A stretch of 64,000 nucleotides of DNA from Naegleria gruberi (Eukaryota). Made by a program: the position numbers and the translations under genes. The notes under the pieces were generated by a model. It did not search any database, had not been told where the DNA came from, and saw only the letters and a list, made by a program, of their open reading frames with translations. How positions within the stretch are numbered: the first letter of the stretch is position 1; the number at the start of each line of letters is the position of its first letter. The stretch is from the NCBI GenBank assembly GCA_000004985.1, contig GG738909.1. One strand, 5' to 3'. Shown in pieces: positions 18,739 through 62,087 of this stretch.

Positions 18739-21285
18739 TTATTCAAGTACAATAACCATTGATTTCTGATCGTGATATTTCCACTTGATTGGATCTGTTT
18801 CGAGTGGAGGAAACATGATTCCAGTCTTATTGTAATTATATCCTCTTGAAATGGCAAGAAGGAAAAAGTCTCTGTTTTGCTTCAAGTGTTTCGGCAGCTC
18901 ATTCAAGTTGTTAGCATTGGCTCTCACTGCCAATTCAGCAATTTCCAAGTCCTCCTTCAAATGATCTGGGAAATGAACGTAACTGTTTGGATATTTAAGT
19001 AAGGTAGCTTTGGCAAGTTTGCTATTTAACTTGAATCTTGGTGGTAAATTGTTAATATCAACAAATGTTGGTGTTTCCATAATTGCCCTTTCTACAATTT
19101 CCTCATCAATGATACTCTGATCAATATTTTCAAAGCAAAGATATTTTGGACTCTCGTTTCTTAAATATTTACAGCATTCGATTGTGTATAAAACCATTTC
19201 TCTATCTTTTTGGAACTTTTCACTCATAACTAAAATTTTAGGGAAATTCCTGACTGCAATCTTGAACAATTCTGGATTGTTGTAGACCTTCTCGTCAAAC
19301 ATGAAAATATTAGTTCCAAACTCTATGGATTTCTTTATCCACTCAATATTTTTCATTACCTTATTATAAAACATTGGTATTACAGTCATGTCACATCCAG
19401 ATTCCACAATAATATTACAAATTTCGTTATTATCTTGAATTTCCTTTGAAAATCTCTGCAATTGATAAGGGAAAGCTTTCAAAGTCCTCTTGGCGAATTC
19501 AAGATTAGTAGTTAAAAAATCAGGTGTGCATTTTTTTCTCTCGATTTGCTTATTTTTTACAGTGTTGATTTCATCGTGTTTAATTTCCCAAGTGGTTTCA
19601 GATCTGAAATTTTTTCTGCAACTGTAAATAAATAATTGATCCAATACTGGAAAATATGGCGCAGCTTCGAGTATCAGTTCCATTTCGTTTTCCAACCATG
19701 TATTTCTGAAATTTTTACAAATTGTTGGATAAATTGGCACAATTTGCTTCATTAATTCGGTATCTTCTCTCAATTCTGTGTGAAGATGCTTGTACAGAGT
19801 AGGTTGATAAACTTCCTTATTCTTCAAATTTTGACATGCCAATTTGAATAAATTTGCCTGGACTTCAAGGGGAACAGTATTATCACATATTACACTTGTA
19901 AAGTTTTCACCAAGGAGTGATATTGCCGATTTACACAATTCAGGATGTTTTTCAAAGTGTCTCCATTCTATTGGAATATTTCCAAATGTTGATGGAGCTA
20001 ATTTGATAATTTCTGAAAAATCATTTTCAGTATAAGTATACTTTTGAGCTGATTTGATATTGTACTCTGCCATGAATTTCAAACCATCAGGAATAGTTTT
20101 AAAAACCCTTCCTAAAAATTCGTAATCTCTCTTATCTAGTACCTTATTTTCAATCACTCCATAACATGAAGTTTCGAATACTGGACCGTAAACTCTATCA
20201 TCGTTCGTAAGGAAAGCCTCCATAATCACATCCTTGTCTTGAATTAGAGATGGATGCAGAGTAATCTTTTCAAAATTTTGCAATTTCTTGTGCGTAGGCA
20301 TTTTGGATCCGTGATAGAAAATCTCTCTGAAATGGTTCAGGAAAAATATAACAAAATCCTTGTTTGATTTCAGATCTTCTGGTAAATTCTGGAAGGGGAT
20401 CAATGATAAACGAGCTAACAGGTAATAAATTGAATTATTCTTGATGGATGACAAGAATTTGGAAAGCCATTGATCCTTTGTCTTATCTACATATAATTTT
20501 TTCTTGACATTGTCAAATTCTGGATAATCGGTTGGACCATATTGATCTATTTCCTTTGGTCCCCGAGGGAATGTAATAGATTCCTCAATTCTTTCATAAA
20601 GTTGTGGAATAATCTCTCCTTGTGAAACTGACAATTCTAAAAGGTCTATTAACTCGTTCCAAATTCCATATTCTTTCTGAAAGAGATGGTACTCCGAATG
20701 GGATTGACGAAGGTGTGCTTTTTTCAAACTACGAGTATCGTACACTTTGAAATTTTGAATCACAATCGCAAGACACTTGTCAATATTCTTCAACAGCGAT
20801 TCTGGACAATCTTCCAAATTTTTCAAGTGAATTCTGCAATAATAATTCAAACAATCAGCCTTCAAGAATTTGAATTTTCCCAACAAGTAATGCACAACCG
20901 ACCTCATCAACTTGTCATCCGATGGCAACTCATTAAAATCATTCATTTCACGAATAGTTGAACTGTACTGTAATAGGTTAATCACCCTAAAGGCTTTATA
21001 CAAATTACTATTCACCACTCGGAAGTAAAATTGCTGATCGACAAGCATTGCCTCGAGCATTGTTTTTGGATCAAGAAAATCACTCACATAATCTTGAATT
21101 TCGGGTAACAAATTTCGGAATGGAAAAAAAAAGGATGATGAGGATGATGAATCGACAAGCATTGCCTCGTCCTGACTTGTTTCCTGATGATGATTCTTTG
21201 GTTCATCATGGAGTGTACCTGTTGTTGATGGTTCTTGCATTTTTTTTTGATGTTCTTTAGTGGTAGATTCATTGTAAAAGTTCAT
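18739..21285 (-). CDS. Hypothetical 848-aa protein with weak repeated DUF4116-like (F..D.E.VL.AV..N) motifs; no confident family
   Basis: Long uninterrupted ORF with typical coding composition. Recurring units include KDFVIFFLNHFREIFYH, ELFKIAVRNFPKILVMSEKFQKDREMVLYTIE and LKQNRDFFLLAISRGYN. The last about 17 codons (IKWKYHDQKSMVIVLE*) lie inside the duplicated 5S block. Confidence 0.6.
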   Translation of the reverse strand: MNFYNESTTKEHQKKMQEPSTTGTLHDEPKNHHQETSQDEAMLVDSSSSSSFFFPFRNLLPEIQDYVSDFLDPKTMLEAMLVDQQFYFRVVNSNLYKAFRVINLLQYSSTIREMNDFNELPSDDKLMRSVVHYLLGKFKFLKADCLNYYCRIHLKNLEDCPESLLKNIDKCLAIVIQNFKVYDTRSLKKAHLRQSHSEYHLFQKEYGIWNELIDLLELSVSQGEIIPQLYERIEESITFPRGPKEIDQYGPTDYPEFDNVKKKLYVDKTKDQWLSKFLSSIKNNSIYYLLARLSLIPFQNLPEDLKSNKDFVIFFLNHFREIFYHGSKMPTHKKLQNFEKITLHPSLIQDKDVIMEAFLTNDDRVYGPVFETSCYGVIENKVLDKRDYEFLGRVFKTIPDGLKFMAEYNIKSAQKYTYTENDFSEIIKLAPSTFGNIPIEWRHFEKHPELCKSAISLLGENFTSVICDNTVPLEVQANLFKLACQNLKNKEVYQPTLYKHLHTELREDTELMKQIVPIYPTICKNFRNTWLENEMELILEAAPYFPVLDQLFIYSCRKNFRSETTWEIKHDEINTVKNKQIERKKCTPDFLTTNLEFAKRTLKAFPYQLQRFSKEIQDNNEICNIIVESGCDMTVIPMFYNKVMKNIEWIKKSIEFGTNIFMFDEKVYNNPELFKIAVRNFPKILVMSEKFQKDREMVLYTIECCKYLRNESPKYLCFENIDQSIIDEEIVERAIMETPTFVDINNLPPRFKLNSKLAKATLLKYPNSYVHFPDHLKEDLEIAELAVRANANNLNELPKHLKQNRDFFLLAISRGYNYNKTGIMFPPLETDPIKWKYHDQKSMVIVLE

Positions 21286-26612: not shown

Positions 26613-28309
26613 ATGAACGACAAGACACTTGTGGGCAAACTCGACAAGTTAACCAACACACAACAATCTATTCAAGGTTTGTATTGGTGATGATAGCATG
26701 ATGATTCGAGCAAGAACGGAATGATTTATATATTTATAAAATGTATCAACAACAATATGTTTTTATGATAAATGATCAAATTGGTTGAAAATATAATGAT
26801 GAATAATGATGACAATAACAATAATTTGTGTTGGAATTTTGTACGGAATGTATTCATGTGATTACACTTGATCCAAAATATCATGTAATGAACACTTGTT
26901 TGAACAACAACAAATTAGCCTTGTCACTTTGGGTTATTTACCACGTCAAGAAGGCTCAAGAAATTGTTTCCATTTGGGCTAGAGAAGCTAAGAAGGCAGC
27001 ACCAAATAGAAAATTATGCTATTACTACTTGGCCAATGATGTTATTCAAAATTCGAGAAAAAAGACCAATGCTTTTGTTGAACAATTTCAAGCAGTGCTA
27101 CCAGGATCACTCCGAGATAACATCTCACTCATGACAGAGAAGGATCGTAAGTCCTTGCAACGTATTTTCAGTATTTTGGAGGAGAGAAAGATTTTCACAG
27201 CTGATTTTTCGAGTGAGTGCAAGAGTGTTATTGATGGATCGCTTGGAGGTTCATCATCTAATACTTCCTCTGATAATTCTCGTAGTAGTGGTAGTGGTAA
27301 AGAAAGATCATCCGAGTCAAATCCTCTTAAGAGAGAAAGACCAAGCAGTAGTAATACTTCGTCATCTTCCAATGATGCCTTGACATTACTTGCCAACACA
27401 AATTCTGTTGTTAAAAGTCTTGTACAATTCAATGAAATTGTTCAAGCTAATCGTGTCGATCAAAAAAATTTCACAGATAATGATAAACTTGTTCAAGAAT
27501 GTAAACAACGAGTATTGGATAGACATGAATTGAGAGAAGATCAATTGGGTAAGTACATTTGTGGAAATGTGGATATATTTCTGTACTTTGAAAAATCAAA
27601 AACTAACTCGATAATTTTCAAATTAAATTTTCATTCATCCATTAATATATTTTCATTATTTAATCACATTCATTAATAATTTAGCTCATTCAACACCTTT
27701 CACATTAAAACAATTACAAGGTGATGTTGAAGGAGTGCTCACAAAATGCTCTGATTATAAATTTGCGCTTGCAAAGGAAAATAACAAACGAAAGGAATAT
27801 ATGACAGCACTAGAACAAGAATTGAACGAACAGAGAAACTTGTTTAATCAGTATAATGACTTGATTAAAGTATGTAGAACATGCAATGTTTTTAAAACTA
27901 ATCTCTTAAAACCTTACTTAAGGAATGGAATGATAATTACCTTGTCGATTTGCAAAAAATCTCAACCTCTCTCGAAATTCATCTCAATAGCAAACAATTC
28001 AATGGTAATGATGACGATGTATTGACGGGAGGTAATCAAGATGATGGCGATATTGTTGTTCCAACTTATTCTGATGACTTTTTCAAAGTGGATGAAGATG
28101 AGGTAGAGCCATCAAATAAAAAGTTGAAAACAGAACCAAGTTATGACGAAGATAATGAAGATTTATTCACTGAAACTAAGCCTATTTCTACAACCAATAC
28201 ACTCAATTTGGTTAACTCTATATTGAGTGCATTAGGAAACAAGAATACCAGTGGTTCTCACCAACCATCAGAGGAGTATGAACCTAATGAATATCCACCA
28301 TTCGATTAA
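26613..28309 (+). CDS. Rtt103/RPRD1-like CID (RPR) domain protein, C-terminal-domain-interacting type. Four exons: 26613..26676, 26919..27548, 27721..27869, 27923..28309.
   Basis: Exon 1 is MNDKTLVGKLDKLTNTQQSIQ, then a GTTTGT...TTAG intron. Exon 2 begins ALSLWVIYHVKKAQEIVSIWAREAKKAAPNRKLCYYYLANDVIQNSRKKTNAFVEQFQ. It is collinear with human RPRD1B (QSVQTLSLWIIHH...LNLLYLANDVIQNSKRKGPEF). Introns GTAAGT...ACAAG and GTATGT...TTAAG join the downstream ORFs in phase. Total length is 1230 nt, 410 codons. Confidence 0.8.
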
Positions 28310-28368: not shown

Positions 28369-31300
28369 TTATTTCTTTTTGGAAGGATTTGTGTGAACTG
28401 AACGTTCATGTCTTCTCAAGTTGGAACAAGTAGTAAATGTCTTTCCACAACCTTCAACATTGCAAACGTATGGTCGTTCTCCTGTGTGAATTCTCATGTG
28501 AGTTTGTAAATCAGAACGACGAACAAACTTCTTGTTACATCCCTCAAATGTGCAAGTGTAAGGTTTGTTGCCAGAGTGAAGTCTCAAGTGGCGTTTAAGA
28601 TTGGCAAATTGGGCAAACTCCTTTCCACAAGCATCACATACATATTCACCTTTTGAGTTTTTGGTAGCATTCTCCTTTGTAACTCCTTTAGACAATCCTA
28701 CTTCATCATCATCGTCATCATCCAACTCAGCCAACTCGTCTTCAAGTGTTGAAGAGCTATTGACAAAGTGATTAATAGACATGGTCTCATTACTACTAGA
28801 ATCAATATTCAACCTTAACAGGTGAGTTCTTGTTGTTGTGGTTGCTGTACTTGGTGTTGATTGACCTTGTGAAGATATGGATGGTGAGTAATTTGGTGGA
28901 TTAAGCAAACTAGTATTCATGGCATTGGTAATGTTAGTAGCCAACAATTGTCTTGGACTTGTTGGTGCATTATATTGTGGCTGTTGTTGTTGCTGTTGTT
29001 CGAGCAATGCATTAGAGTGATAGGATAAATCCAATTGTTGTTGTGGTTGTTGATTGAACTGCATGTTTTGTGGAATATTTTGTTGAAGATTTTGCATGTT
29101 TTGCATCTTGAATCCATTGTTGTTAATGACATTATAGTTCATATTACCATTTTGAATATAGTTTGGTGTTTGCAAAATATTTTGTTGTTGAGGGTAGAAA
29201 TTAAGCTGCATTTGTTGGAGAGTATTATTATTGACATATTGGTTATTGAACTGTTGATTATTAAATTGATTTGTGACTGGATTTTGAAATTGATTAAAAT
29301 TGATGAATTGTTGTTGATTGTTTTGATTGTTTTGATTGTTTTGACTGTTTTGATTTACAAAAATGGTATGAGATTGAGGAATTTGGACATTAGTATTGTT
29401 AATTATTGGCTGTTGTTGAACTTGTTGGAGTTGTTGTGGATTGGTGAGGAGTTGAGTATAGCTTTCATCTTCGTTGGTAAGAGAAAGATTGCTCAAACTT
29501 CTATCAATATTCATAGTGTAATCATCTTGTTGATTGGAAACGATTGGAACGTTGGCAGGTTGAGAAAATTGTTGTTGGACTGTTGGCTGCTGTGTAAATT
29601 GTTGGAATTGCATTTGATTAAACAGAGCATTTTGCTGATAAAGATTTTGCTCTTGTTGTGATACTTGACTGTTTTGACCATTATTCGAAATGACAGAATT
29701 CCTCTTGAATACTTTTCCAAAAAATCCAAAAAGTTTGTTCTTGCCATTCGACTTTTCATCTTCACCTTGTTGAACTGGTGACTGTCTATTGTTTTGTTGG
29801 GAAAATTGTTGAAGATTATGGAAAGTTTGTAAATGTGGATTGTTCATATTGTTAGCTACATTCATAGATCTCTGTAACTGGTTATTGTTATATGGTACAT
29901 TTGTGGTGGAATTGATAAGATCATGAGAATTGAATTGTTCAAGGTTAGGTTGTTGCTGAGCTGCTTGATTGTGTTGTTGTTGAATAATTTGATTCATGTA
30001 AAGATGAGGACTCATTGGATAATCTTTCTGTTTCTTTTCTACGACATAATTGTCTCTTGGTTTTCTCTTTCTTTTGGTACCATGATCTTCCTCTTGTTCT
30101 ACCTCACGTGCTGAATATTCCGAATAACTAGATGATGTAATTTCAGATTCTTCAAATGAGCGAGAATAAGAGTTGTTGTTCTCTCTCAATAATTGTTGAA
30201 GTTGAGAAATTTGTTGGGCATTAACAGCATGTGGATCAGTGAGAGGGCTTGGTGATATTAAACTTCCAGTTGAAAATCTTCTTGAATCATTGGAATACTT
30301 GGTACCAAAATTTTCCTCTCTTGGTAAACTAGGTTCAATAATATCTAGCCCACCTCCTTCTTCAATATTATTCAAAATTGATCCACCAAATGAGGGAGTT
30401 ATCATCGATCCAAGAGAGAAGCGATGTCTTAAATTTGGAGTGAAACAATCGTTTTGTGTATCATCTGCACTGCTACCGTATGTGTATGCCATTGAGTTTT
30501 TCATTGGAGTGTGACTACTATTATTATTTTCCAAACTATTATTAATATTTAAGAATTTAGATTCTTTTCCAATTGGTTTTCCTTTTTCAGATGTATTATC
30601 TTGTTCGGTTGGAGGTGGTTTAACAATATTAATCAAAGGTTCAGGTTGTACTGTTTTTTGCTCTTTAGTTATCATTATTGGAATTGTTGGTTTTTCCTGA
30701 ACAGGAAGAGGTGGCTGATCATAGGAATCAATTCCTGGAAGCTTTTGATCATCTGCATTCATGTCCTCTTTGATTCTCTGGTATAGAGAAATACTATTAT
30801 TAAAGAGTAATTCACTAGAGTCGCCTGCTGTGAGGAGACATTTTGAGGTTCCAGACAATCTCAACTCTTGATTTTCTCCAAAACTATAACTCGAAGCATG
30901 CAACAATGATCCAAAGTTTGATAAATTTCCACTACTAGCATCCATACGATTGTAACTACTTCCTGGTTTGAGATTGGAGTCACCACTCTCACCAAAATGA
31001 TTTGGAATTAAAATATTACTCAATGATGGTGTATTCATGCTGCTCACTACTTCATCATCGTCATCATCTATGGTCGAACCACTTGGCACTGAAGTTGACA
31101 ACTTTTTTTGACGGTTAATATTGAGATAAATATTGTCAGAATCAGAAAATTCCATTGGTGAAGGTAAATTTGCTCCAATAGTCATTAACTGTAAAAAAGA
31201 TTGTCAAAATGATAGACGAAAGATCAATACTTACTGGTGTGCTCAGAAATTTTCTAGTCAATGCAAAAATTCCAGTTGCAATTAATGATGACCTAACATC

Positions 31301-35266: not shown

Positions 35267-36952
35267 ATGACTGAGACAAGTGGTAGGGTTGTTGCTTCTG
35301 CTGATTTGAAAGAGGTGGTTGATGATCAAGTACAACAACATGCTGATGTTGTCGATAATCATCATCAACAACAATATCAGGCTAGTGCCGAGAAGGCTAT
35401 TGCTAATGGTCAATCGGATGTTGTAGTTAATGATGCTCAAGTTTTGGACAAGATGGGAGAAATTACAAAGAATGAAATGAATCAAACAGAGAGGTTTTAT
35501 TTGAGGAAGATTGTTGCCAAGACATGTAGTGATCCACCTAATTTGATAATTTATTCATTGATTATTTTATTTGGGCTATCTTCGTGGATTGCAGTGAATG
35601 GCATCTATTCAGAGATACCTCTATTGGGTTATGTCATGCCAGAAGGGTATGCTATTGCTGTGGATATGAATTTGAGTTTACAATTGGCTAATATTGTCCC
35701 CTTCATGTATTTTGTGTTTATGATTTTCAAAAAGATGATTCAAAGAAAGCTCAAACCAACTACGACAAGGAAGTCAACATTTGACATTGTGGATACAGTA
35801 TCTATTTTGAGCTTATTTGTGATTGGTATTGGAGCATTGATTGGCATGTCGTTTTTGTGGAATATTCCAATTAATGGAAGGTCATGGCCATTTTTAATAA
35901 TGATGTTCTTGGTTGGAGTTAGTGATTGTACCTCAACATTGTTGTTTTATCCATTTGTATTACATTTCAAACATGCTTATTCAAGTGCTCTATTAATTGG
36001 AGAATCCTTAACTGGTTTGATAGCTTCCATTATTTCCATTATTCAAAATTCAACTCCAACACCATTGTTCCCATTTTGGGTATTTTGCATCATTATTGCA
36101 GGTATCACTGCCATTAGTTTGGTTTCTTATTGTTTATTAAGATTTTTACCATACTCTAAAAAGGAATTGAGAAGAGATGTTGATGCTTTGGATGAGGAAA
36201 CAAGAGAATTAATAGTGAAAAAACGACCACTCATGACATGGTCTACCGTAAGGTTGATTTTTTTCCAATTCTTGATAAGCTGTTCTGAAAACGGAGTTGT
36301 TGTTTCAATCATGCCATATGTCTTTGCTCACTACAAACATCATGCCACATTGTTGCAGTATGCTATCACCATAGGTATGATTATCAGCCCAATAGCTAGT
36401 GGCGTTGCTTACCTCGTTCCATTTTACAACTTTTTCATTGCCATGTTCTGCCACTTGATTTGGATTGTTGGTGCTTGCTTTTTAACAGTTATTGCATTCA
36501 ATAATCCAAATCCTCCATTGAAATACTCGACAGCTTTCGGAGGATTCCTAGTGGTCGTGGCCATTCTCACAAAGGGATTCATGTCATTCTGTAAAACAAA
36601 AGAATTTTTACACAGCCATCAAGTCATTGAAAAGCAGGACGAAATGATTTATAAGAAATTATTATTGGAATCTAGAAAAAAGACTGAACAAACTCAACAT
36701 GTGGAAGAAAAACTCGAGCAAATTGAACCAATTAGTACTGAACAACAAGAAGCAACAATCGTTCCTAATGGAGAGGAAATTATTGACCTACCAATCAATC
36801 AAAAGAAATTAACCTTTGGAGAACGTTTAAGAGATGCTCTAACTCAAATGGATTTGAATCCTTTCCGATGTGCTGGTTTTGGAATTCAAATTGGAGCTCT
36901 TGTAGCTACAGTTACAGTGAAATTATTCTCAGACGCTCATTATTTTTCATAA
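35267..36952 (+). CDS. Riboflavin transporter of the SLC52/RFVT family (DUF1011), 10-11 TM helices, with a cytosolic loop and C-terminal tail
   Basis: LIILFGLSSWIAVNGIYSEIPLL, ...DCTSTLLFYPFV..., GESLTGLIASIIS mirror human SLC52A3 ([47 protein letters not shown]). Confidence 0.75.
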   Translation: MTETSGRVVASADLKEVVDDQVQQHADVVDNHHQQQYQASAEKAIANGQSDVVVNDAQVLDKMGEITKNEMNQTERFYLRKIVAKTCSDPPNLIIYSLIILFGLSSWIAVNGIYSEIPLLGYVMPEGYAIAVDMNLSLQLANIVPFMYFVFMIFKKMIQRKLKPTTTRKSTFDIVDTVSILSLFVIGIGALIGMSFLWNIPINGRSWPFLIMMFLVGVSDCTSTLLFYPFVLHFKHAYSSALLIGESLTGLIASIISIIQNSTPTPLFPFWVFCIIIAGITAISLVSYCLLRFLPYSKKELRRDVDALDEETRELIVKKRPLMTWSTVRLIFFQFLISCSENGVVVSIMPYVFAHYKHHATLLQYAITIGMIISPIASGVAYLVPFYNFFIAMFCHLIWIVGACFLTVIAFNNPNPPLKYSTAFGGFLVVVAILTKGFMSFCKTKEFLHSHQVIEKQDEMIYKKLLLESRKKTEQTQHVEEKLEQIEPISTEQQEATIVPNGEEIIDLPINQKKLTFGERLRDALTQMDLNPFRCAGFGIQIGALVATVTVKLFSDAHYFS

Positions 36953-37089: not shown

Positions 37090-39816
37090 ATGCAAATGCT
37101 TCACATTTTGATAATAAGCGTTTTCCTCACGTTGTTGACACCAGCCATATGTCAATTTATTCCACCTGATATTGAAGTCAAACCTATTATTACTGGCCTA
37201 AAGGGACCCTCTTCACTCTTTTACCAACACGACAGTCTCTTCATCCTAGCAACTAATCAACAAATTCTACTCAAGACAGACTTTCAATCAAAGCCAAACA
37301 TTATTCTTGGCATTAACAACACTTTTGGATACAATGGAGATGGAAAACTTGCAAAGGACACCACTTTAAGTAATCCTCACGGTTTACATGTGAATGGCTC
37401 GTTCATTTATATTCCAGATAAATGGAGTCAGCGCTTGAGAATGGTCAACAAGGAAACAATGATTGTTCAAACAATTGCTGGAAATGGAATCTGTGGTTTC
37501 AGTGGTGATGGACAAAAAGTTGGAGTGCCAAATACACAATTGTGTAATCCACAAGGAGTTTTTGTGGAGAAAAATGAGATTTATATTGCAGATACTTTCA
37601 ACAATAGAATTAGAAAGATAGATTCGAATAATTTTCTTTCGACTGTTGTAGGGTCTAGCTCAATTGGTGGGTTTTCAGGGGATGGAGGTCTAGCAACAAA
37701 CGCCAAACTCTTTAGACCTGAATCTGTATTTGTGTATATGAATCAAGGCCAAACTGATATATTGATTGCCGACACTTTTAATAATAGAATCAGATTAGTC
37801 AAGAATGGTATAACCTCAACAATAGCAGGCGGAAATACCCAAGGATACAATGGAGATGGTATTCTTGCTAAAGATGCGTATCTATGTCAACCTAGCTCTG
37901 TATTTGTTACAACAGTTGGTGAAAGTCTTATTGCTGATTATTGTAATCACAAAATTAGAAGAATTTTCACAAATGGAACGATAACTAGTTTACCAATACA
38001 GGTCAGATATCCAAAATCCATTTTTCTTGATCAAACAAATGGCAATCTTTACATCTCTGAATTGGTTGATGGGACAGTTCAACAAGTGACATTTTACTGT
38101 AAAGAAGGATACAAATTGAATGATTTTCTTGTATGTGAACCTGTTTGCCAACAATCATGCAATACGAAAGGTAAATGTTTGGCTCCTGATGTTTGTGAAT
38201 GTCAGGACAGATACTATGGTGAGTTCTGTGAGGAGTTTACATGTTTTGGAATCTCAAAGGATCATCCAATGGTTTGTTCTGGACATGGATCTTGTATTTC
38301 TCCTGATTCATGTGAATGTGAAGTTAATTACTTTAACAGTAACTGCTCAGCAACTTCTTGCTTTGGAAAGAACTCAACCGAGCCATCTGTTTGCAATTCA
38401 CATGGTAAATGCACTTTATTCAACACATGTAAATGTGAATTCAACAAATATGGTGGCAATGAGTGTGAAATTCCTCTATGCAATGGAAAAAACTCTTCAG
38501 ATCCCAATGCATGCTCTGGTAATGGATTCTGTAGCACTGTCGTTTCTCCCGCTTCATGCATTTGCACTCGAGATATGAGTGGAGCATATGTAGGATCTGA
38601 TTGTCAATACCCAACCTGTATTTCAATCCCCTCTTACGAACCGAGAGTTTGCAGTGGAAATGGTCGTTGCTATGGATTTAATTTGTGTGAATGCAAAGAA
38701 GGATACGAAGGACTGTTTTGTGAATCAGTTACATGTGGAACTGGTTGCAAGATAGCTGCTTCAATTCCTGCGAGCGTTGTAGTCGGAGTTTGTGGTGTTA
38801 TTAGTTTGGTTTTGTTTCTGACGAGAACGAAACTGAAAGAATTTGCTAAAAAGCTCACATATACTGAACTTAAAGATATAGAGATAGTACCTTATCAACA
38901 TTTCTACATTGCTACAGAAGATGAAAAATACGAATACAAACTCAAAAGAATATTAGGAAAGGGAGGATTTGGTAAAATTTATGTTTTTGATGAGATTAGT
39001 GATGGGCAAACCATTGAAGTTGCAGTGAAAATCGTTGAGTCAGTTGATATGTCTGTTCTTAATGAGCCTACAACTATGAGTAGGTTACAACATACCCATA
39101 TTGTACCTATTCGTCGTTTTACAATTGTTGGTGATGGAAAGTATACTTGTTTAATTATGCCACTGTATCTCTGTGATTTGAGAAAGTGGTCTCAAAGCTC
39201 ATTGATGACCATTGAACTGATTATTGAAATTGTTAAGCAAACTGCCTTCAATATCTGCACAATATGAATATGGTCCATAGAGATCTGAAACCAGAAAACA
39301 TACTAGTTGAATCTCCAAATCCTTCACAGGATACGATCATTGATATATCCTCATTCCACTTGCGTGTTGGCGATTGGGGATCAGCCAGATTCGAATCTGT
39401 TGAGACAAGCAATGGTTTCACAGCACAGTACTGCTCACCAGAACATTTTCAAGAAGGAATAACTTCCTGCAACAAGAGTGATATTTGGAGTCTTGGATGT
39501 ATTCTCTATCAATTACTCTCATCAGATTACGAATCGAAACTAAATGTAGTGAAACAAAAAACTCAAAGTGATGAAGACGATAAGGAAATTAGGGAAACAG
39601 TAAGGGGAATGACCAAACTGGATGATTCATTCAAGCTTAATTCCATGTGTGATTTAATGCTAAATATGATCAAGTTCAACCCAGAGGAAAGGTAAGTTTG
39701 CTTTGAATCTAATAATCTTAATCATAATGGATAGAATATCTGCTGATGAAATATTGCACAGATTGAGTACCATTAATAATCAGTCAATGGATATAGCTCA
39801 GAATTCTGGCAATTAA
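37090..39816 (+). CDS. Receptor-like Ser/Thr protein kinase. Layout: signal peptide, NHL beta-propeller, 7-8 EGF/tenascin-type Cys repeats, TM, kinase. The catalytic domain is interrupted by a -1 frameshift near 39250. The final small exon 39735..39816 follows a 43-nt intron.
   Basis: Signal MQMLHILIISVFLTLLTPAIC. NHL units (FNNRIRKIDS..., ADTFNNRIRLV..., YCNHKIRRI). EGF-like CxxxGxCxxxxxCxC repeats. TM VVGVCGVISLVLFLT. Kinase motifs LGKGGFGKIY..VAVKIV. The frame then changes between ...LIIEIVKQTA and LQYLHNMNMVHRDLKPENILV..DWGSA..., which are two overlapping track ORFs (37090..39267 and 39264..39695). Then ...FNPEER|GTAAGT..ATAG|ISADEILHRL. Confidence 0.75.
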
Positions 39817-41193: not shown

Positions 41194-42176
41194 TTAATGT
41201 TTATGATCCAATTCGAATATGTAAAAGTCATAAACTGGTTTGAAACCAAACTTTTCATAAATTCCAATTCCCATTTCAGTTGCTTCTAAAACCATTTTCG
41301 TGTAACCTAATTGTTTGGCCATGTCTATCATTGAAACCATGAGAATGGTTGCAAATCCTTGGTTTCTGTGTCCATCACGAGTTGCCAAATGATTAATAGA
41401 AGCAACATGTTTTCCCATCACTAATTTTCCACAAGCAACTATTTCCACTTGTCCATTCGAAAGTTTTTGCTTAATTCCAACAGTGAAACTTTTCACAGAC
41501 GAATCTGGAGCAACTGTCGAAGTATCATTTCTAATAATTTCCTTCAAATTATCAGAAATTTGTGGAACACCACTAAATGCATCGGATTGACAAGTCCAAA
41601 ACTGAACCATTTCCTCTGGACTTTTCATTTCTACCAATTCGAATGATTTCTTCTCATTTTCACAAATCTTTCGTCCAGAAAATATTGGAATTGACGAGTA
41701 TTCCATATTTTCCACCATCCATCTTCTCTTTTCCTGATAATATTCAGTCAAATCTTGAATTTGTAAAAGCATGACAGTTTGCATTGTCAAGCTAGAAAAG
41801 CATTCTTTCAAATTCATCTTTTCAAGCTAGAAAAGCATTCTTTCAAATTCATCTTTTTGTAAATGTAAGTGGAGCCAAATTTCAATCGTTCTTGAACTTT
41901 TTCACTCCACAGCAATTGGTATTCTTGTAAGAGAGTCAAATTTTCACTTGTGGCCATATTAATCTTGCAATAATAAAACTGTGGAGTGCCATTGAGTCCT
42001 AAATTTGAAATCCTCGTGGCTGTGTCCATCACATCCTTGGTGTATCCACCAAAAACCTCCAGATACTCCAATCCTACCAATTCAAAGTGACTCATCGTGG
42101 CGTGAGAAGTCGTAAACTCTGCAAAACTATCCTGCACCATACTCATGAGTGCATTCTCTCCTTCCAAACTTGCCAT
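41194..42176 (-). pseudogene. GNAT-family N-acetyltransferase gene split into two ORFs by a frameshifting 35-bp perfect tandem duplication
   Basis: Downstream ORF (41194..41817) carries the GNAT acetyl-CoA motif RNQGFATILMVSMIDMAKQLGYTKMVLEATEMGIGIYEKFGF. The upstream ORF (41814..42176) ends ...YIYKKMNLKECFSSLKR*. The downstream ORF begins MNLKECFSSLTMQTV, because the segment is duplicated. Deleting one copy restores a single ORF of about 315 aa. Confidence 0.6.
41787..41856. repeat. Perfect 2 x 35-bp tandem duplication (tcaagctagaaaagcattctttcaaattcatcttt) inside the GNAT gene
   Basis: Direct reading of 41787-41821 versus 41822-41856. 35 is not a multiple of 3, so the duplication frameshifts the reading frame. 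Confidence 0.85.
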
Positions 42177-53104: not shown

Positions 53105-56100
53105 ATGGATATGCGTGGATTGTCAGTGTTCATTTCCGACATTAGAAAATGTTAGTATATTGTTTTTTTGTTGGTTTTTTAACTGGCTTTTGGATATGAT
53201 GTTTTTGTTGTTGTTGTTTAAATATTCTTGTCATTATTAATTATAATCGATCCTGATCGTATTGTTGTATTATAATTACTTCCTTTTCAACAATACCAAT
53301 ACGATATTTAACAATGATTTAACTTGTGGATTATACACTCAACAATAATAATACAATAACAAAATAATAACAACAACAAATACTTGCGCGATGATACAAT
53401 AATTGCTCGCTGCTCTATCCAACACCTCTATTGTTGGTCGTCATCGATAATAACAACAACAAAATTTTTATTAATATTACACAATAATTAACAGCAACTA
53501 CAAAGGAAGAAGAACAATCTAAAGTAGAAAAAGAATTAGCCAAGATCAGAGGTAAATTCAAGAATGGTGGAGCTCTTAAAGGATATGATCGTAAGAAGTA
53601 TATCTGTAAATTGCTCTATATTTACATGCTTGGTTATGAAATTGAATTTGGTCACATTGAAGCCGTCAATTTGTTGGCTTCACCAAATTACTCTGAAAAA
53701 CATATGGGTTATCTTGCTTGTTCATTGTTGTTGAACGAAAATCACGAAATGGTTACACTTATTACCCAATGTATGAAGAATGATTTGAATAGCAAAAATC
53801 CAAATGATCAATGTTTGGCACTTACAGCTATTGCCAACATTGGTGGTAAGGAACAAGCTGAAGCTCTTGCTCACGACGTACAAAAATTGCTCATCTCCAA
53901 CGAAACCAAATTGACTGTCAGAAAAAAGGCTGCTCTTACTCTCTTGAATTTGCATAGAAAATACCCAGAAAGTTTGCCTCCAGATTCTTGGTCCGAAAAG
54001 GTTATTGCTCTTATCAATGGTAGAGATCTTGGTGTTATTACCAGTGTTATGAGTTTAATTTTGGGACTTGCCGAAAAGAATCCAGAAGCTTATCAAGATG
54101 CAGTTTCAAAGACTGCTCGTTTATTGATGAAGTTGGTTTTGAACAGAGAATATTCTACATCATATTTGTACTACAAGATTGCTGCCCCATGGTTGCAAGT
54201 TAAAGCTTTCCAATTACTCCAATACTACCCAGTTCCAGAAGATAAGGCCATCTATGACTCTATCATCCAAGCTATTGAAAAAGTTATTCAAATTGCTAAG
54301 AAATCAAAGGAAACTACATCAAAGAGTGTGAGTCAAATTAATGCTGCTCACAGTGTTCTCTTCGAAGCAATGAATCTTGCTATTCACTACGATTCATCAA
54401 AGACAATCTTGGTGACAGCTTGTTCCATGTTAACTAAATATTTGAAGGATAGAGAAACTAACTTGCGTTATCTTGCTCTTGATACTCTCTCACGTATGGC
54501 TTACTCTCAATTCGATGAAGTTTTGGCTACTATCAGAAAGGAACAAGATACCATTTTACTTGCTTTGAAGGATCCTGATATCAGTATTAGAAGAAGAGCT
54601 CTCGATTTGTTGTACAGTATGTGTAACAGAGATAATGCTGGTGAAATTGTTGGTGAATTGCTCAACTATTTGCCACTTTCCGACTATGCTATCAGAGAAG
54701 AATTGGTTTTGAAGATTGCCATTCTTGCTGAAAAGTTCTCTGTTGATCTCACTTGGTATGTCGATGTTGTTCTCAATTTGATTTCCCAAGCTGGTGACTT
54801 TGTTGCTGATGATATTTGGCACAGAGTTATCCAAATCGTCACAAACAAGGGTGAAGAATTACAAAAGTACACTGCTCAAACTGTTTTCAGTGCTGTTTCT
54901 TCTCCAGCTGCTCATGAAACTTGTGTCAAGATTTCTGGTTACATTTTCGGTGAATTTGGTGACTTGATTGCTGATAATCCTCAAACTGATGCTTTTTCTC
55001 AATATGAATTGATCTTGTCCAAGTTCAACTTGTGTTCAACCACTACTAAGTGTCATTTGTTCAACTCTTTGATGAAGTTGTACAATTTGTATCCTGATAA
55101 CCAAGGACTCCGTGATAATATTAAGGATGTTTTCGAAAAGCACACCAATTCTTTCGATGCTGAATTGCAACAAAGATCTGCTGAATATTTGGCTCTCATC
55201 AATACTGGTGATGAAGATCTTATTCAAGCTGTCATGGATAACATGCCAATGTATCCAGAACGTGACTCTCAAGTCATTAAGAGATTGATGGAAAAAGAAG
55301 CTGCCAAGAAGCGTGGTGCTACTGGTACAGGAAGAGAAAACAACGAAGACGAAGAAGAAGAAAATCCAGATTTGGATGTTCAAGTACCTGAAACCAAACA
55401 AGGTGGAAATGATTTGTTGGATATGCTCGATATGGGTGGTTCTTCAAATAACAATAATGCTGGAGGATATAGTATGGATGACATTTTGGGAGGATTTGGT
55501 GGACCAGTTTCTCAACCACAACCAACTAATAATGGAGGAGGTTTGAGCATGGACGATATTTTGGGAGGATTTGGTGGACCAGTTACTCAACCACCTGTTC
55601 AACAACCACCACAAAACAATGTTGGTGATTTCTTTGGAGGAGGTGTTAACATTGCTGCTCAAGCTGCCAACATGGGTAAGCAAAAGAAGGAACAAAGAGA
55701 TACTACCGGATTCAACTTTGATGATGTTGTAGTTGCTAACAGAGATAATGCTCTTGAACAAAACGAACAAGTCCATCAAGACGCTGCTGTTAAGCATCAA
55801 GTTTTGCTCAAGTCTAACGAAGGTGTTGCCATTGAAGACGAACATTTGCAAGTCAAGATTAAGACTGAATATCACGGATGTAAGGGTAGACTTATTCTCC
55901 TCTATGGTAACAAGACTACTAATCCATTGACTCAATTCAAGGTTCACATTCTCGTTCCAAAGGAATTGGAAGCTCAAATTTCCAAGGTTCCACCAATGAT
56001 TTCACCAAAGACTCAAGTCCAACAATACGTTGACTTGGTTGCTAAGGGCCCATTCAGCCAATTGACTGATTTGGATTTGTACTTTGAAGCTAATCGTAGA

Positions 56101-56502
56101 TATTACAGATTCAACATCAAGTTGCCAATCGTTCCACACAAGTTTGTTGAACCATTGGTCATCCAAGGTGCTGAAAACTTCTTTAAACAATGGCACGCAA
56201 TTGGAAAGGAACAAGAAGTCCAAAAGATTTTCCCATGCACTCCTGTATATTCTGATGTAAATGCCTGTGCTAAGGTTTTGTCTGAAGGTTTCCGTTTGGC
56301 CATTTTGACTGGTATTGACAATCCAAGTAATATTGTTGCTGCTGGTTCTTTCTTCTATGATCCTGTTGGTAAGGTTAACGTTTTATTACGTCTTGAATAC
56401 AATGCTCCAAAGCAAGCTTACAGATTAACTGTCAAGGCTCAAGATGCCACTATTGCTCAACAAGTTTTCAATTACATCTTACAAGAACTCACCTCCCAAT
56501 AA
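53105..56502 (+). CDS. ap2a1: AP-2 complex subunit alpha (alpha-adaptin). Two exons: 53105..53150 and 53495..56502.
   Basis: Exon 1 is MDMRGLSVFISDIRK, followed by donor GTTAGT, a 344-nt intron and acceptor TTAACAG|. Exon 2 begins STTKEEEQSKVEKELAKIRGKFKNGGALKGYDRKKYICKLLYIYMLGYEIEFGHIEAVNLL, collinear with human AP2A ([55 protein letters not shown]). HEAT/ARM trunk, G/Q/P-rich hinge, C-terminal appendage. Confidence 0.85.
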
Positions 56503-56677: not shown

Positions 56678-59181
56678 TTACTCCAAAGTATTATTTGGAG
56701 ATAGGTAGGCTTCTTGATTGATTGTCAAGGTAATATTATCATTGTTTCTTGTTGGTGTTTTGGGTTCATTCAATGTTTCAAGATTTGCAGAATTTTTCTT
56801 TTGTAAAATGTTTAAACTTGTTCTCAACATGTCAGTGAAGGATGGAACAAGAGCTGGAGTGTGATGTTTCTCATGCAACATGTAAGCAATACATTCACCT
56901 TTTCCTTTCACATTTAAATGTCTTTCTTCAAAAGTGAAACCCAAATCATAAACTCTTTCGTAGGTTGATCTGGAAATTTGAATTCTTCCTGGAATTGAAT
57001 TAGATTCCATTCTTGAAGCTGTATTAATTGTATCTCCCCATAAATCCTATTTAATTAAATATTAAGATGAAGTATTGAAAATGTACATGTTAAAATGTTA
57101 AAATGTTGAAATTAAAAACATACATATGCAAATTTCTTCCTCCCAATAACACCTGCAATAACACTTCCAGTATTAATACCAACACGAATATTAATTTGTT
57201 CAGATGGATGTTTTCCTGATTTTGAATTAAATCTTTGTAAAACATCAAATGTATCAATGGAAAATCTCAAAATTCTTTCAGGATGATCTGATTGTGCATT
57301 CAATCCATGTAATCCACCCACACAAAAATATGAATCTCCAATCGTTTTAATCTTTTCCAAATTATACTTGTCTGTCAAATCATCAAATCCAATTACAATT
57401 TCATTCAACATTTGAACCAATTCAGATGCTTGAATTCCAGTACTCAATTTTGTAAATCCCACCATGTCACTAAAAAAACATGAAACATCATTGAATTTCT
57501 CTGCAATATAAGTTTCTCCTGATTTCAATTTACTTGCTACTGCACTTGGTAAAATATTCAATAATAATTCTTCAGAATGTTTCTTTTCTTCTGTCAATAA
57601 TGAATTATGTTTCTTCTCTGTTGTAATATCCTTAATGAAACAAGTTACAACACTTTGAGAATTGTGAAGAGTGGCAAAAATATTGACACGTGATGGGAAG
57701 CTTGTTTGATTCTTTCTGATACATTCCAATTCAATAGAATCTCCTTTCGAATCACCTCTTGCTGCATTCACCAACATTTCATCAATGAGGTTTTTAATTT
57801 TCGATTGCTCATTCTTTTCAAATAATTGATACAATGATCTTCCAATCGTTTCTGTTTGATTGTATCCAAATATCTTTTGAGCTGCTGGATTGAATATTTC
57901 AATATCAACCTTCTCTCCACTGCACATCACTGCTCCATCTACAGATGCATTCAAAATGCTTCGAACTTTTGAGTCACCTTCCCCTAAATTTGACTTCTTT
58001 TTGAGGAGGGAAGACAATGTATTTGGAATATGGTGATGTACAATGTAATTCTTGATATTTTCATTAGAATCCATTAACTCAATTGATAAATAGTTAAAAA
58101 GAAGACGAAGTTGTTGGACAGAGTTGGCATGTTGATGTAAGGACCAACGAATGGCAAGTGAAATGGAGATAATTGCAATAAATCCAACGAAACTGAATGC
58201 GTAGACAAGTTCTTCATCAGTTATGGCAGCATCTTTTGAAAAAACAGTAGAAAAATCAATCAATTGATCTGAAATGGCTCTGGAAAGATGGAAATGTTTA
58301 ACAAACGTTTCGAACAGCTTCAAGTTATTAATTTTTCCGTTTTCATCCATTAGCTCCATTATTTCATTGGAAATTGTGACGAAATTTGTAATCATATCAT
58401 CAATTCCCATAACGCACGAATGATTACCATCTTCTTTAAACATGTCAGTCAATGTACAATTTTCCTGACCTGCCACGAGTAAATTTACATCATCAAATTT
58501 TCCAAGTATGGTATTTTCTGGATTCTCTCCAATGGATGTTCCATAAATACATAAATTCCAATGGTTTTTCAAGTCACTTGATTTTTCAGTAACATAATGC
58601 TTTGGATTGGATGTAAAATTGTATAAATTAGAAACTCTGAAGAAAGCATCATTGTTGGAGCGAAATCCAGATATAATATACTTCTCAGTGATAAAATTAC
58701 TCAAATATTGAATATCTTCAAAAGTTTGGAATGATTCTTTCATAATAACATAGGATCCGTAACATTGATTCACATTTTGTAAAGTTTCCAATAAGAATAG
58801 CCCACAACAAACTGAAACAATTAGAGAGAGAATAAGAGCCAATACAACTACAACACTCCTTGGATATTTCCAAACACTCTTGACTGGATGAGTTGATGTA
58901 TCATCATTGACTACCTTACTCAATTCATGGAATAATCTTCCTGCATCATTTTTTGAAACATTCTTCTCAATGAGAAGAACTATCTTTGTTATAACAGATA
59001 GATCTAACTTAGAGTAGAATACATAAAGAGATGTATAGAGGAAGTAGACTGTCACAATGATGGAAAAGTAAATGATAAAAGTATTAGTAATTAGTTGAGT
59101 TTCATCCTTTGAACTGGAAACAAAATTCACACAAAAATCAGAATAGGCAGTAACCATTCTCTCGGAATTAAAGTACTGCAC
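56678..59181 (-). CDS. ACG-like sensor nucleotidyl cyclase. Layout: TM, extracellular domain of about 230 aa (CHASE-like), TM, PAS-like region, class III adenylyl/guanylyl cyclase catalytic domain. Last intron 57123..57047. Probably continuous with the 59208..62087 ORF through a 41-nt intron.
   Basis: Cyclase motifs FSDMVGFTKLS, KIKTIGDSYFCVGGL, INIRVGINTGSVIAGVIGRKKFAY|GTATGT..AAATAG|DLWGDTINTASRMES. PAS-like IFNPAAQKIFGYNQTETIGRSLYQLF. Two TM helices flank a Cys-containing extracellular segment of about 230 aa. Confidence 0.75.
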
Positions 59182-59207
59182 ATGATTAGAATAAAACTCT
59201 AGAACAA

Positions 59208-62087
59208 CTAACTTACCAATAACATAAAGGGATAACTTGACAGAAAACTCTCTAGGTCTGCTAGTCCAAATTTAGAAATAGTTTCAGAGTGTGTATAGAA
59301 TAAATTTGTAATATCTGCAATAGTGGTATTAGTAGTGGTCGAAATGTTATAAACCTTATCGATTTCTGTTGCTGGCCATGAAGTTGGTAAATTGAAAGTG
59401 TAATAAATTTCATGATATTCAGAGTACATTTCCTGTGTGAATTTTCCGTCATGAACCAATTCTCGCACTGATTTCAAAATGTCCCTGTAAGTATTAATGT
59501 GTTCTAACATTTCTTCATGATAATGTTCCAAAGAAGTATATCCATACTTGGACATGACATTCATCCATTCAACCATTGAGTGATTGTACAAATATGTGAT
59601 TGGTTGAAAAGCTCTCATACTAGACATGATCTGAACAGAGGCGCCAACTGGAGCACAAGCTGTTTCCACTATTTTAACAGTGCCTGAAATATAGGATGAG
59701 AATGAAACACTCAAAGCCAAACTAACACTCAAAAACAAGATGGAAAATAAGACAAATAGAGAGAAGAGGAAAACTTGGAGAGTGTGTCTGTGTGGAAGGC
59801 TCAGTGAAGTTCTGAATACGTTTTCCTTTCTAAATTCTGGATTATTCTCAATTCCATTGAATTCTGGATTGGTTTCTGCCTCTTTCTGATCGCCATAGAA
59901 TGAACTGCTCTCACTTCTAATGTCGTGTTCCTGGAGATGGATACCAATATTTGGGCCTTCTTGTGTTGGAACTATTCTGTTTTTAAACTTGGACTTTTGA
60001 TTCCTCTTCTTTCTTAATTGAGCATTTCTTTTGGTTTCTTCCTCTTCCAAACTTGATGCTTCAGCATACAGCTCTTGAGCAGCATCCTTATTAAACTTGA
60101 ATTCTTCAATGTATTTGGCAAAATTTCGTAATAAATTCTTGTCATTCTTATAAATTGCCAACATGTTCAAAAACTTGGTTTCACATTCATTGGAAATAAT
60201 TCCCATTCTTACAATGATTGATTCAATCTTATCCCTCAAGACACATTCCTGGAGCATTTCCTTCCAGAACATTCTGTGAAGGGCTTTCAATTCATTTTGT
60301 CTCCTTTCGAGAATGAACATTACTTCACTCATTTCTTCAGTATTTTTGGCATTTGGATTAATTTGATGAACTATAATGTCAACTTCCTTCTGTTTCAAAT
60401 AGATGAGGAATCTATACCATGTATTTGGTCTCTTTTTTATGGCTCTCCTTAAAATTCCTTTGGAAAATGTTGTGGCATTGACATCATTTACGAGACAATT
60501 TGATGCTATAGAACTTGATAAGAGAAGAATATCATTATCGAGTTGTGAGTTGAGTGATGATATACCTCTAACAAGAGAAAGAGACATTTTCAGATTGCTC
60601 AACATATTTGGATTGCTGGAAAGAGTTGGATCTTCTTCATCTGTTGGAATCTTTTCCTTAATGGAGAATTTCAAAAAAAGTTTCAGATAATTCAACTTTT
60701 TGGATTCTAGAAAGTATTGGTAAATATTAATGGAATCCTTCTCGATTGCCTTTTCCAGTAAATCAGGGAAACCATTATTAGATTCATTTCTAATACCTTC
60801 AATTACAATAAATCGAACACTTCTAATCAAAATTCTTGTAATCGCCTCCATTACCATCATTCCAACAAAAAAAGAGATGATAATCATTGCCAAAGTCATT
60901 CCAGCTAGACCAATTCCCAGCACATTATCAACTGACTTGTAAATTGCCGAAAGATTTGGATTATTTACAACGCCACTAATTAGAGAACCAAAACTTGAGA
61001 AGATCCTTGCAGATAACACTCCAACCATAATGGAATTCTCAAATCTCTTAAAATATGGAACGTTTTTCGAAAAACCAATCATTAAACCAATCGAAACTAT
61101 CAAATGCACAATCGATCTGATAAATGCATACTGAGGAGGAATCACATAATGTGAAAGAATTTGGAATTGAGTACAAATCATTGTTCCAATAAGGAAAATT
61201 GGATGATCAGAAGTGAATGGAGAAAAGTGTTGGGGATGACAATTCGTCACAATTAATAGAGAAAAACATGATAATATCATTTGAATGATTATTCCAATAA
61301 TCATGATGGCCATGAAGGCAATATTAATAGTTGAATAACATTCAATGTTCTGGTTTGAATATTGTAAAAAACGGTTGAGAACTGAGACAGAACCAAGATT
61401 ACAATCAAGTGGTGTTGTCAATAGGTAAACAGCTGGAAGAGAAACGAGTAGAAAAAGTTTCGAACCAAGGGCCAAACCTTTCTTTGTCCATTTCAAATAT
61501 TGAGAAGTTGTTTTGTAAGCATACACACTCCAAACCAAGTAAACAATAAATAACAGCTCTACAGCTATAACCACAAACGCTAGAGCCAACGAACCTATAT
61601 AAGGTAACCTTTCGAATGATAAAGTCAAAGGATAGTTCAATACAGAAAAAACCCATGTTCCCCACTCTCCGTATTTCATTTCCATTCCAAGATTTGGCAA
61701 GAATATACCAATCCAAAATACATAAGTATGAAATAGTAAACTAATCAAATAGGAATATAGACCTTCTCTTAATTGTGCCTCTTGCATGAAGAATATAAAA
61801 TCCATAAGTTGATTTCTGAGCTTGATTCCAATCGAAATCTCAGAGCCAGTAATATCTGTTGTTGAATATTTGGAATGTTGGGACGAGAAGGATACATTTG
61901 ATGAGCTAGAGGTATGTTGTCCATGAACTGAGGGAATATTCAGATAACTTGTTGGAGTCGTCTGGTTTCTAGCAACGGTTGACCCACGACGTGAAGTACT
62001 AGCAATAGAGATTGAATCCTCTTCTATGGCAATATTGTTGTTGTTAGTATTATTCAATTGATTTATACTAGCATTGGGATGCAACAT
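59208..62087 (-). CDS. Large multipass membrane protein: about 9 N-terminal TM helices, a cytosolic region of about 330 aa, then further TM and an extracellular segment. The C-terminal end is most likely spliced (59216..59176 intron) onto the ACG-like cyclase ORF downstream.
   Basis: The ORF ends ...SYPFMLL followed by GTAAGTTAG (the stop is inside a consensus donor). A CAG acceptor sits 41 nt later, in frame with YFNSERMVTAYSDF... of the next ORF. Hydrophobic helix clusters at residues about 100-440 and about 750-775. No family recognised. Confidence 0.55.
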   Translation of the reverse strand: MLHPNASINQLNNTNNNNIAIEEDSISIASTSRRGSTVARNQTTPTSYLNIPSVHGQHTSSSSNVSFSSQHSKYSTTDITGSEISIGIKLRNQLMDFIFFMQEAQLREGLYSYLISLLFHTYVFWIGIFLPNLGMEMKYGEWGTWVFSVLNYPLTLSFERLPYIGSLALAFVVIAVELLFIVYLVWSVYAYKTTSQYLKWTKKGLALGSKLFLLVSLPAVYLLTTPLDCNLGSVSVLNRFLQYSNQNIECYSTINIAFMAIMIIGIIIQMILSCFSLLIVTNCHPQHFSPFTSDHPIFLIGTMICTQFQILSHYVIPPQYAFIRSIVHLIVSIGLMIGFSKNVPYFKRFENSIMVGVLSARIFSSFGSLISGVVNNPNLSAIYKSVDNVLGIGLAGMTLAMIIISFFVGMMVMEAITRILIRSVRFIVIEGIRNESNNGFPDLLEKAIEKDSINIYQYFLESKKLNYLKLFLKFSIKEKIPTDEEDPTLSSNPNMLSNLKMSLSLVRGISSLNSQLDNDILLLSSSIASNCLVNDVNATTFSKGILRRAIKKRPNTWYRFLIYLKQKEVDIIVHQINPNAKNTEEMSEVMFILERRQNELKALHRMFWKEMLQECVLRDKIESIIVRMGIISNECETKFLNMLAIYKNDKNLLRNFAKYIEEFKFNKDAAQELYAEASSLEEEETKRNAQLRKKRNQKSKFKNRIVPTQEGPNIGIHLQEHDIRSESSSFYGDQKEAETNPEFNGIENNPEFRKENVFRTSLSLPHRHTLQVFLFSLFVLFSILFLSVSLALSVSFSSYISGTVKIVETACAPVGASVQIMSSMRAFQPITYLYNHSMVEWMNVMSKYGYTSLEHYHEEMLEHINTYRDILKSVRELVHDGKFTQEMYSEYHEIYYTFNLPTSWPATEIDKVYNISTTTNTTIADITNLFYTHSETISKFGLADLESFLSSYPFMLLVS

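Follow-up and report, generated by a model that had tools for sequence, protein, structure and literature searches.

A disrupted NHL-EGF receptor-like Ser/Thr kinase gene in Naegleria gruberi, with a likely small and recent deletion in kinase helix alphaE

PknD of Mycobacterium tuberculosis (sensor PDB 1rwi/1rwl) is a bacterial single-pass Ser/Thr kinase that carries an extracellular six-bladed NHL propeller and has no EGF stalk; its kinase is N-terminal and its propeller C-terminal. Teneurins and teneurin-like proteins (PDB 9ifo, 9pt5, 6cmx and 7ban) combine membrane-proximal EGF repeats with a distal NHL propeller; they are type II proteins that possess a YD-shell and a toxin-like C-terminus and contain no kinase. 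NAEGRDRAFT_74151 (UniProt D2VYK3, EFC38129.1) is an uncharacterised predicted protein of 1395 aa from Naegleria gruberi that contains NHL, EGF_TEN and Pkinase domains and a TM segment. Our search found no literature on this protein or on NHL/EGF receptor kinases of Naegleria. An NHL-EGF-TM-kinase layout with teneurin-type EGF modules also occurs in two metagenomic proteins, P0014 (1457 aa) and P0044 (1370 aa). Finally, two Willaertia magna proteins, KAL9654627.1 (REJ domain plus kinase) and KAL9653454.1 (ankyrin repeats plus kinase), bear kinases of the same heterolobosean clade as the gene described here and have no NHL/EGF ectodomain.

The locus that we compare with these systems lies on the + strand of a 64,000-nt stretch of DNA, referred to below as the window. 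A 725-codon open reading frame runs from an ATG at 37090 to a TGA at 39265-67 (span 37090..39267) and terminates within a protein kinase domain. From 39237, directly past a TAA at 39234-36, the -1 frame is free of stops and reads ANCLQYLHNMNMVHRDLKPEN... through 39691. In this frame the kinase domain resumes, crosses a 43-nt GT-AG intron (gtaagt...atag) at 39692..39734, and finishes in a last exon (39735..39816) that closes with a TAA at 39814-16; splicing of the intron joins ...FNPEE-R-ISADEILHRL... within subdomain XI. The downstream part of the -1 frame comprises 152 stop-free codons, a run that has a probability of ~9e-6 by chance given that ~7.3% of random codons are stops at the local base composition. 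In size class and donor the intron matches others of the window, which measure 41-53 nt and have the donors GTAAGT, GTATGT or GTAATA (59216..59176(-), 31234..31189(-), 13021..13065 and 27870..27922, in addition to 39692..39734). A sequence-only reading of this DNA had already placed a frame-broken gene at 37090-39816 and located the frame switch between kinase subdomains V and VIb; the 725-aa ORF and its -1 frame continuation agree with it on both counts. For domain searches the frames were stitched by using base 39246 twice, which is the minimal +1-nt repair, and the intron was removed, yielding an 894-aa protein.

The same reading had judged the architecture to be uncommon in amoebozoa. The host is in fact N. 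gruberi NEG-M: the AP-2 alpha ORF of the window (53611..56502) shares 100% identity with its N. gruberi counterpart, compared with 87% for N. lovaniensis and 76% for Willaertia. Naegleria belongs to the Heterolobosea (Discoba) and not to the amoebozoa, so the argument from rarity is void. The window also contains four ORFs that exactly match the N. gruberi models NAEGRDRAFT_73934, _59552, _73938 and _81655 on a 250,472-bp scaffold, and NAEGRDRAFT_73938 is the gene immediately upstream of the locus. For the locus itself, nothing near-identical was present among 5.8 billion clustered proteins, and an exact look-up of the 725-aa product in a 15-billion-sequence collection returned no entry.

The predicted protein begins with a start codon and a predicted signal peptide (MQMLHILIISVFLTLLTPAICQ; 37090..37155), recognised as a hydrophobic N-terminal window with a cleavage site placed by eye only. 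It is followed by a six-bladed NHL beta-propeller (aa 39-335; 37204..38094). The stitched protein matched Pfam TEN_NHL with 56.8 bits (E 2.4e-15; cut-off 27.1) and NHL with 33.4 bits (cut-off 20), and six blades were delimited, by motif count and by eye, from the blade ends ...ILLKT, ...RLRMV, ...RIRKI, ...RIRLV, ...KIRRI and ...VQQVT. Among solved structures the ectodomain matched a teneurin-like protein (E 2e-52), NHLRC2 and TRIM71, and the NHL region matched the PknD sensor 1rwi weakly (E 2e-5). Next come five tandem, complete six-cysteine EGF modules of teneurin type (aa 353-544; 38146..38721), counted with a six-Cys regular expression, in place of the roughly eight Cys modules proposed before. 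Two EGF models exceeded their cut-offs here, EGF_2 with 42.8 bits (against 22.1) and EGF_Teneurin with 26.9 bits (against 24.3), whereas EGF_TEN, which models the whole array, reached 45.5 bits, under its 65-bit cut-off. Hydropathy analysis (Kyte-Doolittle, 19-residue windows >1.6) revealed two hydrophobic segments only, the N-terminal signal-like peptide and a helix at aa 555-578 (IAASIPASVVVGVCGVISLVLFLT; 38752..38823), which is the predicted single transmembrane helix. Thus the proposed receptor-kinase architecture of signal peptide, NHL propeller, EGF modules, single TM and cytoplasmic kinase is borne out by HMM matches and hydropathy, with both the NHL and the EGF matches exceeding curated cut-offs.

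From this domain order we infer a type I receptor topology. Teneurins and teneurin-like proteins are the best Pfam and PDB matches of the ectodomain and share its membrane-proximal EGF repeats and distal propeller; in contrast to these type II proteins, the stitched protein had no Pfam matches to a teneurin YD-shell/Rhs core or toxin-like C-terminus, and it ends in a kinase. PknD resembles it as a single-pass Ser/Thr kinase with an extracellular propeller, but has the reverse domain order, and the two kinase domains are not specifically related.

The Pfam Pkinase alignment begins at aa 616 of the protein. Its N-lobe and the first half of helix alphaE (GKGGFG, VAVK, ...IELIIEIVKQTA) are encoded in frame 1 at 38935..39246, and its C-lobe (LQYLHNMNMVHRDLKPEN, DWG, SPE, DIWSLG) in the -1 frame at 39246..39691. 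Only when the frames were stitched and spliced did the domain align over model positions 1-259 of 263 of Pkinase (PF00069; 127.9 bits, cut-off 31.7, E 7e-36). All of the catalytic motifs are kept, namely GKGGFG, VAVK, the alphaC Glu (LNE), HRDLKPEN, DWG, SPE and DIWSLG. The DWG motif corresponds to DFG with the Asp retained and Phe replaced by Trp, as is also the case in NAEGRDRAFT_74151. We considered a receptor tyrosine kinase or a member of the TKL group, the latter raised as a query in the earlier reading, and rejected both: the catalytic loop is of the Ser/Thr type and not the HRDLAARN or HRDLRAAN of Tyr kinases, Pkinase outscored PK_Tyr_Ser-Thr (PF07714; 93.8 bits), and the nearest solved kinases were PDK1 and CDPKs (E ~1e-18). 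By sequence, the kinase groups with a heterolobosean 'DWG' clade.

Among 1.84 billion representatives scanned exhaustively with HMMER, the best single-domain match was NAEGRDRAFT_74151; nothing exceeded 42% identity to the full kinase part, and a 154-aa fragment reached 51%. The two N. gruberi proteins share the order of signal peptide, NHL repeats, teneurin-type EGF modules, TM and C-terminal Ser/Thr kinase, their kinases are 39-42% identical with DWG in both, and the flanks of the break are near-identical. The locus thus has both the domain order and the specifically related kinase by which we define a NAEGRDRAFT_74151-like family, and on this comparison NAEGRDRAFT_74151, which is encoded on another scaffold (261,328 bp), is its true same-architecture paralogue. 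They differ in several respects: the ORF of NAEGRDRAFT_74151 is intact, its ectodomain is far longer and contains additional NHL and EGF units, its juxtamembrane segment is also longer, and its catalytic loop reads HRDLKQTN where the locus has HRDLKPEN. The Willaertia kinases are 31-34% identical to that of the locus and have canonical alphaE spacing. The kinase domains of P0014 and P0044 are 68% identical to each other and only 25-26% identical to it, suggesting an old split or an independent fusion.

Next we analyzed the break itself. The assembled sequence does not offer a single continuous frame with canonical alphaE-to-HRD spacing, being broken at 39240-39248 and stopped at 39265. This break (caaACTGCCttc) falls in the sole stretch that is open in both frames, 28 nt at 39237..39264, and the premature TGA (39265..39267) that closes the assembled 725-aa product overlaps the ATG of the downstream ORF at 39264-66. 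Within the break the bases AACTGCC are read as part of KQTA in frame 1 and of NCLQYLH in frame 2. Comparison with relatives showed that restoring one base does not restore the helix. Where the paralogue NAEGRDRAFT_74151 reads IELVLEIIKQIASALDYLHSKGMVHRDLK, the +1-repaired protein has IELIIEIVKQ--TALQYLHNMNMVHRDLK; the two sequences agree almost completely on either side, and helix alphaE is two residues short (KQ--TALQYLH versus KQIASALDYLH). BLASTP against NAEGRDRAFT_74151 placed this two-residue gap exactly at the frame break, as did a MAFFT alignment with 21 other kinases. When the 150 best cluster representatives were aligned with phmmer, a two-residue query gap at the break was by far the commonest pattern (154 domain alignments). 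Similarly, the distance from the alphaE Gln to HRD is 12 residues in the +1-repaired protein and 14 in NAEGRDRAFT_74151 and the two Willaertia kinases, and insertion of two X residues at the break raised the Pfam Pkinase score from 127.9 to 134.6 bits.

Judged from these alignments, in which the relatives share only 31-42% identity with the locus, the lesion probably measures 7 nt and not 1 nt. A loss of 7 nt, that is two codons and one base, would account in a single event for both the frame shift and the residue deficit, and argues against a simple base-call error. The 1-nt error in a homopolymer or CC run proposed earlier is accordingly not the best fit to the family-conserved spacing, although a 1-nt loss in a kinase with a naturally shorter alphaE is possible. 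We speculate that the ancestral sequence was caa-ACT-GCn-AAC-TGC-ctt, encoding KQTANCLQYLH, for which EQTISCLDYIH of Willaertia is a comparator, and that it held a slippage-prone direct repeat AACTGC-N-AACTGC. A 5-nt insertion, as suggested by the phmmer alignment to PDK1 (EIVNCLQYLH), was also modelled and rejected; it gave the lowest Pfam score (125.1 bits) and would leave alphaE four residues shorter than in NAEGRDRAFT_74151, and the EIV shared with PDK1 is a local coincidence.

Based on these results we lean towards a real small deletion, which would make the locus a recent pseudogene or a null allele. An appreciable possibility, which we do not favor, is that the gene is intact and that at 39240-39248 the draft consensus either dropped one base or misrepresented a heterozygous indel. 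The NEG-M genome was reportedly sequenced by the Sanger method. The state of the rest of the gene bears on both explanations: identity to NAEGRDRAFT_74151 is 41.6% upstream of the break and 45.3% downstream, so that conservation is undiminished past it, and the motifs and the intron are intact. As the gene shows no other sign of decay, the lesion must be either very recent or not real. The CC/TT dinucleotide context of the break is likewise one in which a consensus artefact might arise. Against an artefact stands the shape of the lesion, since a 1-nt repair leaves alphaE two residues short, relative to close relatives, exactly at the break; base-call errors are almost always of 1 nt, and a 7-nt loss is unlikely in a Sanger consensus.

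The neighborhood of the locus can be argued in either direction. At a distance of 2 kb, a perfect tandem duplication of 35 nt (41787..41856) interrupts a GNAT-type acetyltransferase gene, and deletion of one copy gives a single acetyltransferase ORF of 315 aa. A PPR gene at ~62.5-63.9 kb shows both a change of frame and an in-frame TGA. That other genes of the window look disrupted too could mean that its quality is locally low. However, a perfect 35-nt duplication is no base-call error, and neither the acetyltransferase nor the PPR lesion, like that of the kinase gene, looks like one; moreover, the four neighboring ORFs with public models match them exactly, and long ORFs (848-1250 aa) run without interruption. 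Naegleria is described as a diploid, heterozygous organism (PMC9928731). The three disrupted genes within the 64-kb window fit recent mutations in such an organism, clonal and long-cultured, and could equally fit a poorly assembled stretch.

We also assessed whether expression could bypass the break, through programmed -1 ribosomal frameshifting, transcript slippage or editing, or termination and reinitiation at the ATGA to give a separate C-lobe, and consider this very improbable. In favor of a bypass, neither frame has a stop over 39237..39264, and the upstream TGA at 39265-67 shares bases with the downstream ATG at 39264. Neither component of a programmed -1 frameshift site was found at the break: the X XXY YYZ slippery heptamer is absent from 39237..39264, and the downstream RNA fold is no better than that of shuffled sequence (z = +0.42), giving no stimulatory structure. 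There is no homopolymer available for slippage, a -1 shift would still leave alphaE two residues short, and a free C-lobe produced by reinitiation would not be a kinase. We give next to no credence to a receptor kinase that works despite the break, by unusual recoding or as a two-piece kinase reinitiated at ATGA (39264-39267). In a milder form of this reading, the other haplotype would be intact, and Heterolobosea would have invented a family of NHL-EGF receptor Ser/Thr kinases, with their teneurin-like ectodomain, independently. Least probable of all is an unrecognized intron over the junction of a gene that is intact as assembled: the gene does have one short intron, and 127 GT..AG pairs within 400 nt are compatible with the frame, but on enumeration of every pair none was plausible, the sole one with a consensus-like donor (38972..39280, 309 nt) would remove the whole N-lobe and the H of HRD, similarity to the paralogue reaches both edges of the break (IELIIEIVKQ | ALQYLHNMNMVHRD), and the 28-nt dual-open zone is smaller than the smallest intron seen in the window (41 nt), in keeping with the earlier remark that the frame switch leaves no room for an intron. 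A relative in which to read the junction was sought as orthologue DNA in metagenomes, where nothing exceeded 34% identity.

With a real deletion as the preferred explanation, the following history can be proposed. The ancestral gene would have encoded a type I receptor-like Ser/Thr kinase, with a six-bladed NHL propeller on a stalk of five EGF modules, a TM helix and a cytoplasmic DWG kinase; by analogy with NAEGRDRAFT_74151, whose domain order it shares, the intact ancestor would have been a single-pass receptor Ser/Thr kinase in which the EGF modules served as the stalk. If PknD-type and other receptor kinases with a single membrane pass are a guide, ligand binding or surface contact at the propeller may have controlled the kinase across the membrane. 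In NEG-M the gene would have been inactivated by a small deletion, most likely of 7 nt, in the codons of helix alphaE, shifting translation into the -1 frame with a stop six codons on. The assembled allele would then yield only the 725-aa protein, consisting of the ectodomain, the TM helix and half a kinase without a catalytic loop. Whether secreted or anchored, this product is predicted to have no catalytic activity, since the stop precedes the catalytic loop, the DWG motif and the activation segment. As everything else is intact, the event would be very recent, and the locus would be either a recently formed pseudogene or, in a heterozygous laboratory strain kept long in culture, a null allele.

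The locus is a second, unannotated and disrupted member of a small, uncharacterised family of Naegleria receptor-like Ser/Thr kinases. Such NHL plus EGF receptor-like kinases illustrate that single-pass receptor kinases have also arisen in lineages other than animals and plants. If the lesions of the window are real, the NEG-M reference would carry several very recent gene-disrupting indels in this one 64-kb stretch, which bears on users of the annotation and on gene loss in a long-cultured axenic strain. The interest of the locus is local and not general, and it has no bearing on a major open question.

A further NHL gene lies in the same window on the - strand (5751..8676), with three exons separated by introns at 8358..8450 (93 nt) and 8136..8187 (52 nt). 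It had been proposed as a kinase-less paralogue with the same propeller. Its 926-aa product is indeed an NHL-repeat surface protein with a C-terminal TM anchor and a short tail, but the propeller is not the same: there are ~12 NHL repeats and no EGF modules, and the identity to the propeller of the kinase gene (32%) is at the level of the repeats. Judged from its sequence, it is a generic NHL-repeat relative drawn from a large pool of NHL surface proteins.

The NHL-EGF-TM Ser/Thr kinase gene whose frame is broken inside the kinase domain (37090..39816, + strand) appears to have been skipped by the N. gruberi reference annotation. No protein model for either half was found in the public collections searched, whereas the flanking gene at 35267..36952 is annotated (NAEGRDRAFT_73938). 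The downstream kinase ORF has its first ATG where the upstream ORF ends prematurely, sharing two bases with the TGA there (ATGA, 39264..39267). Start/stop overlaps of this type are familiar from termination-reinitiation systems; at this locus the overlap is probably a coincidence.

A GNAT acetyltransferase-like gene on the - strand (about 41197..42176) is split into ORFs of 120 and 207 aa by an exact tandem duplication (41787..41856) of the 35-nt unit AAAGATGAATTTGAAAGAATGCTTTTCTAGCTTGA, and in silico removal of one copy regained a single 315-aa ORF that matches Pfam Acetyltransf_1 (4e-8). The PPR-repeat gene at 62564..63926 (+ strand; PPR_2, 1e-26 for the stitched protein) may be another pseudogene, or its disruption may be a sequence error. 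It carries an in-frame TGA at 62807-62809 and a second break, a frame change near 63303-63312 (...LIKGCINS / RISQALNVLELM...), at which no consensus intron was found.

In the NHL-repeat surface protein encoded at 5751..8676 (- strand), the sequence CKTSHLTSFSV lies about 25 residues N-terminal of the TM helix. Judged by eye, it resembles a GPS autoproteolysis motif; the protein gave no Pfam match to a GPS or GAIN domain. A REJ domain is present in the related Willaertia kinase KAL9654627.1. Neighbouring genes on the - strand encode a DUF4116-repeat protein (NAEGRDRAFT_59552; 18739..21285) and a 1061-aa heparinase II/III-like protein (1604..4789; Hepar_II_III_N, 1e-99), the latter from a family better known from bacteria.
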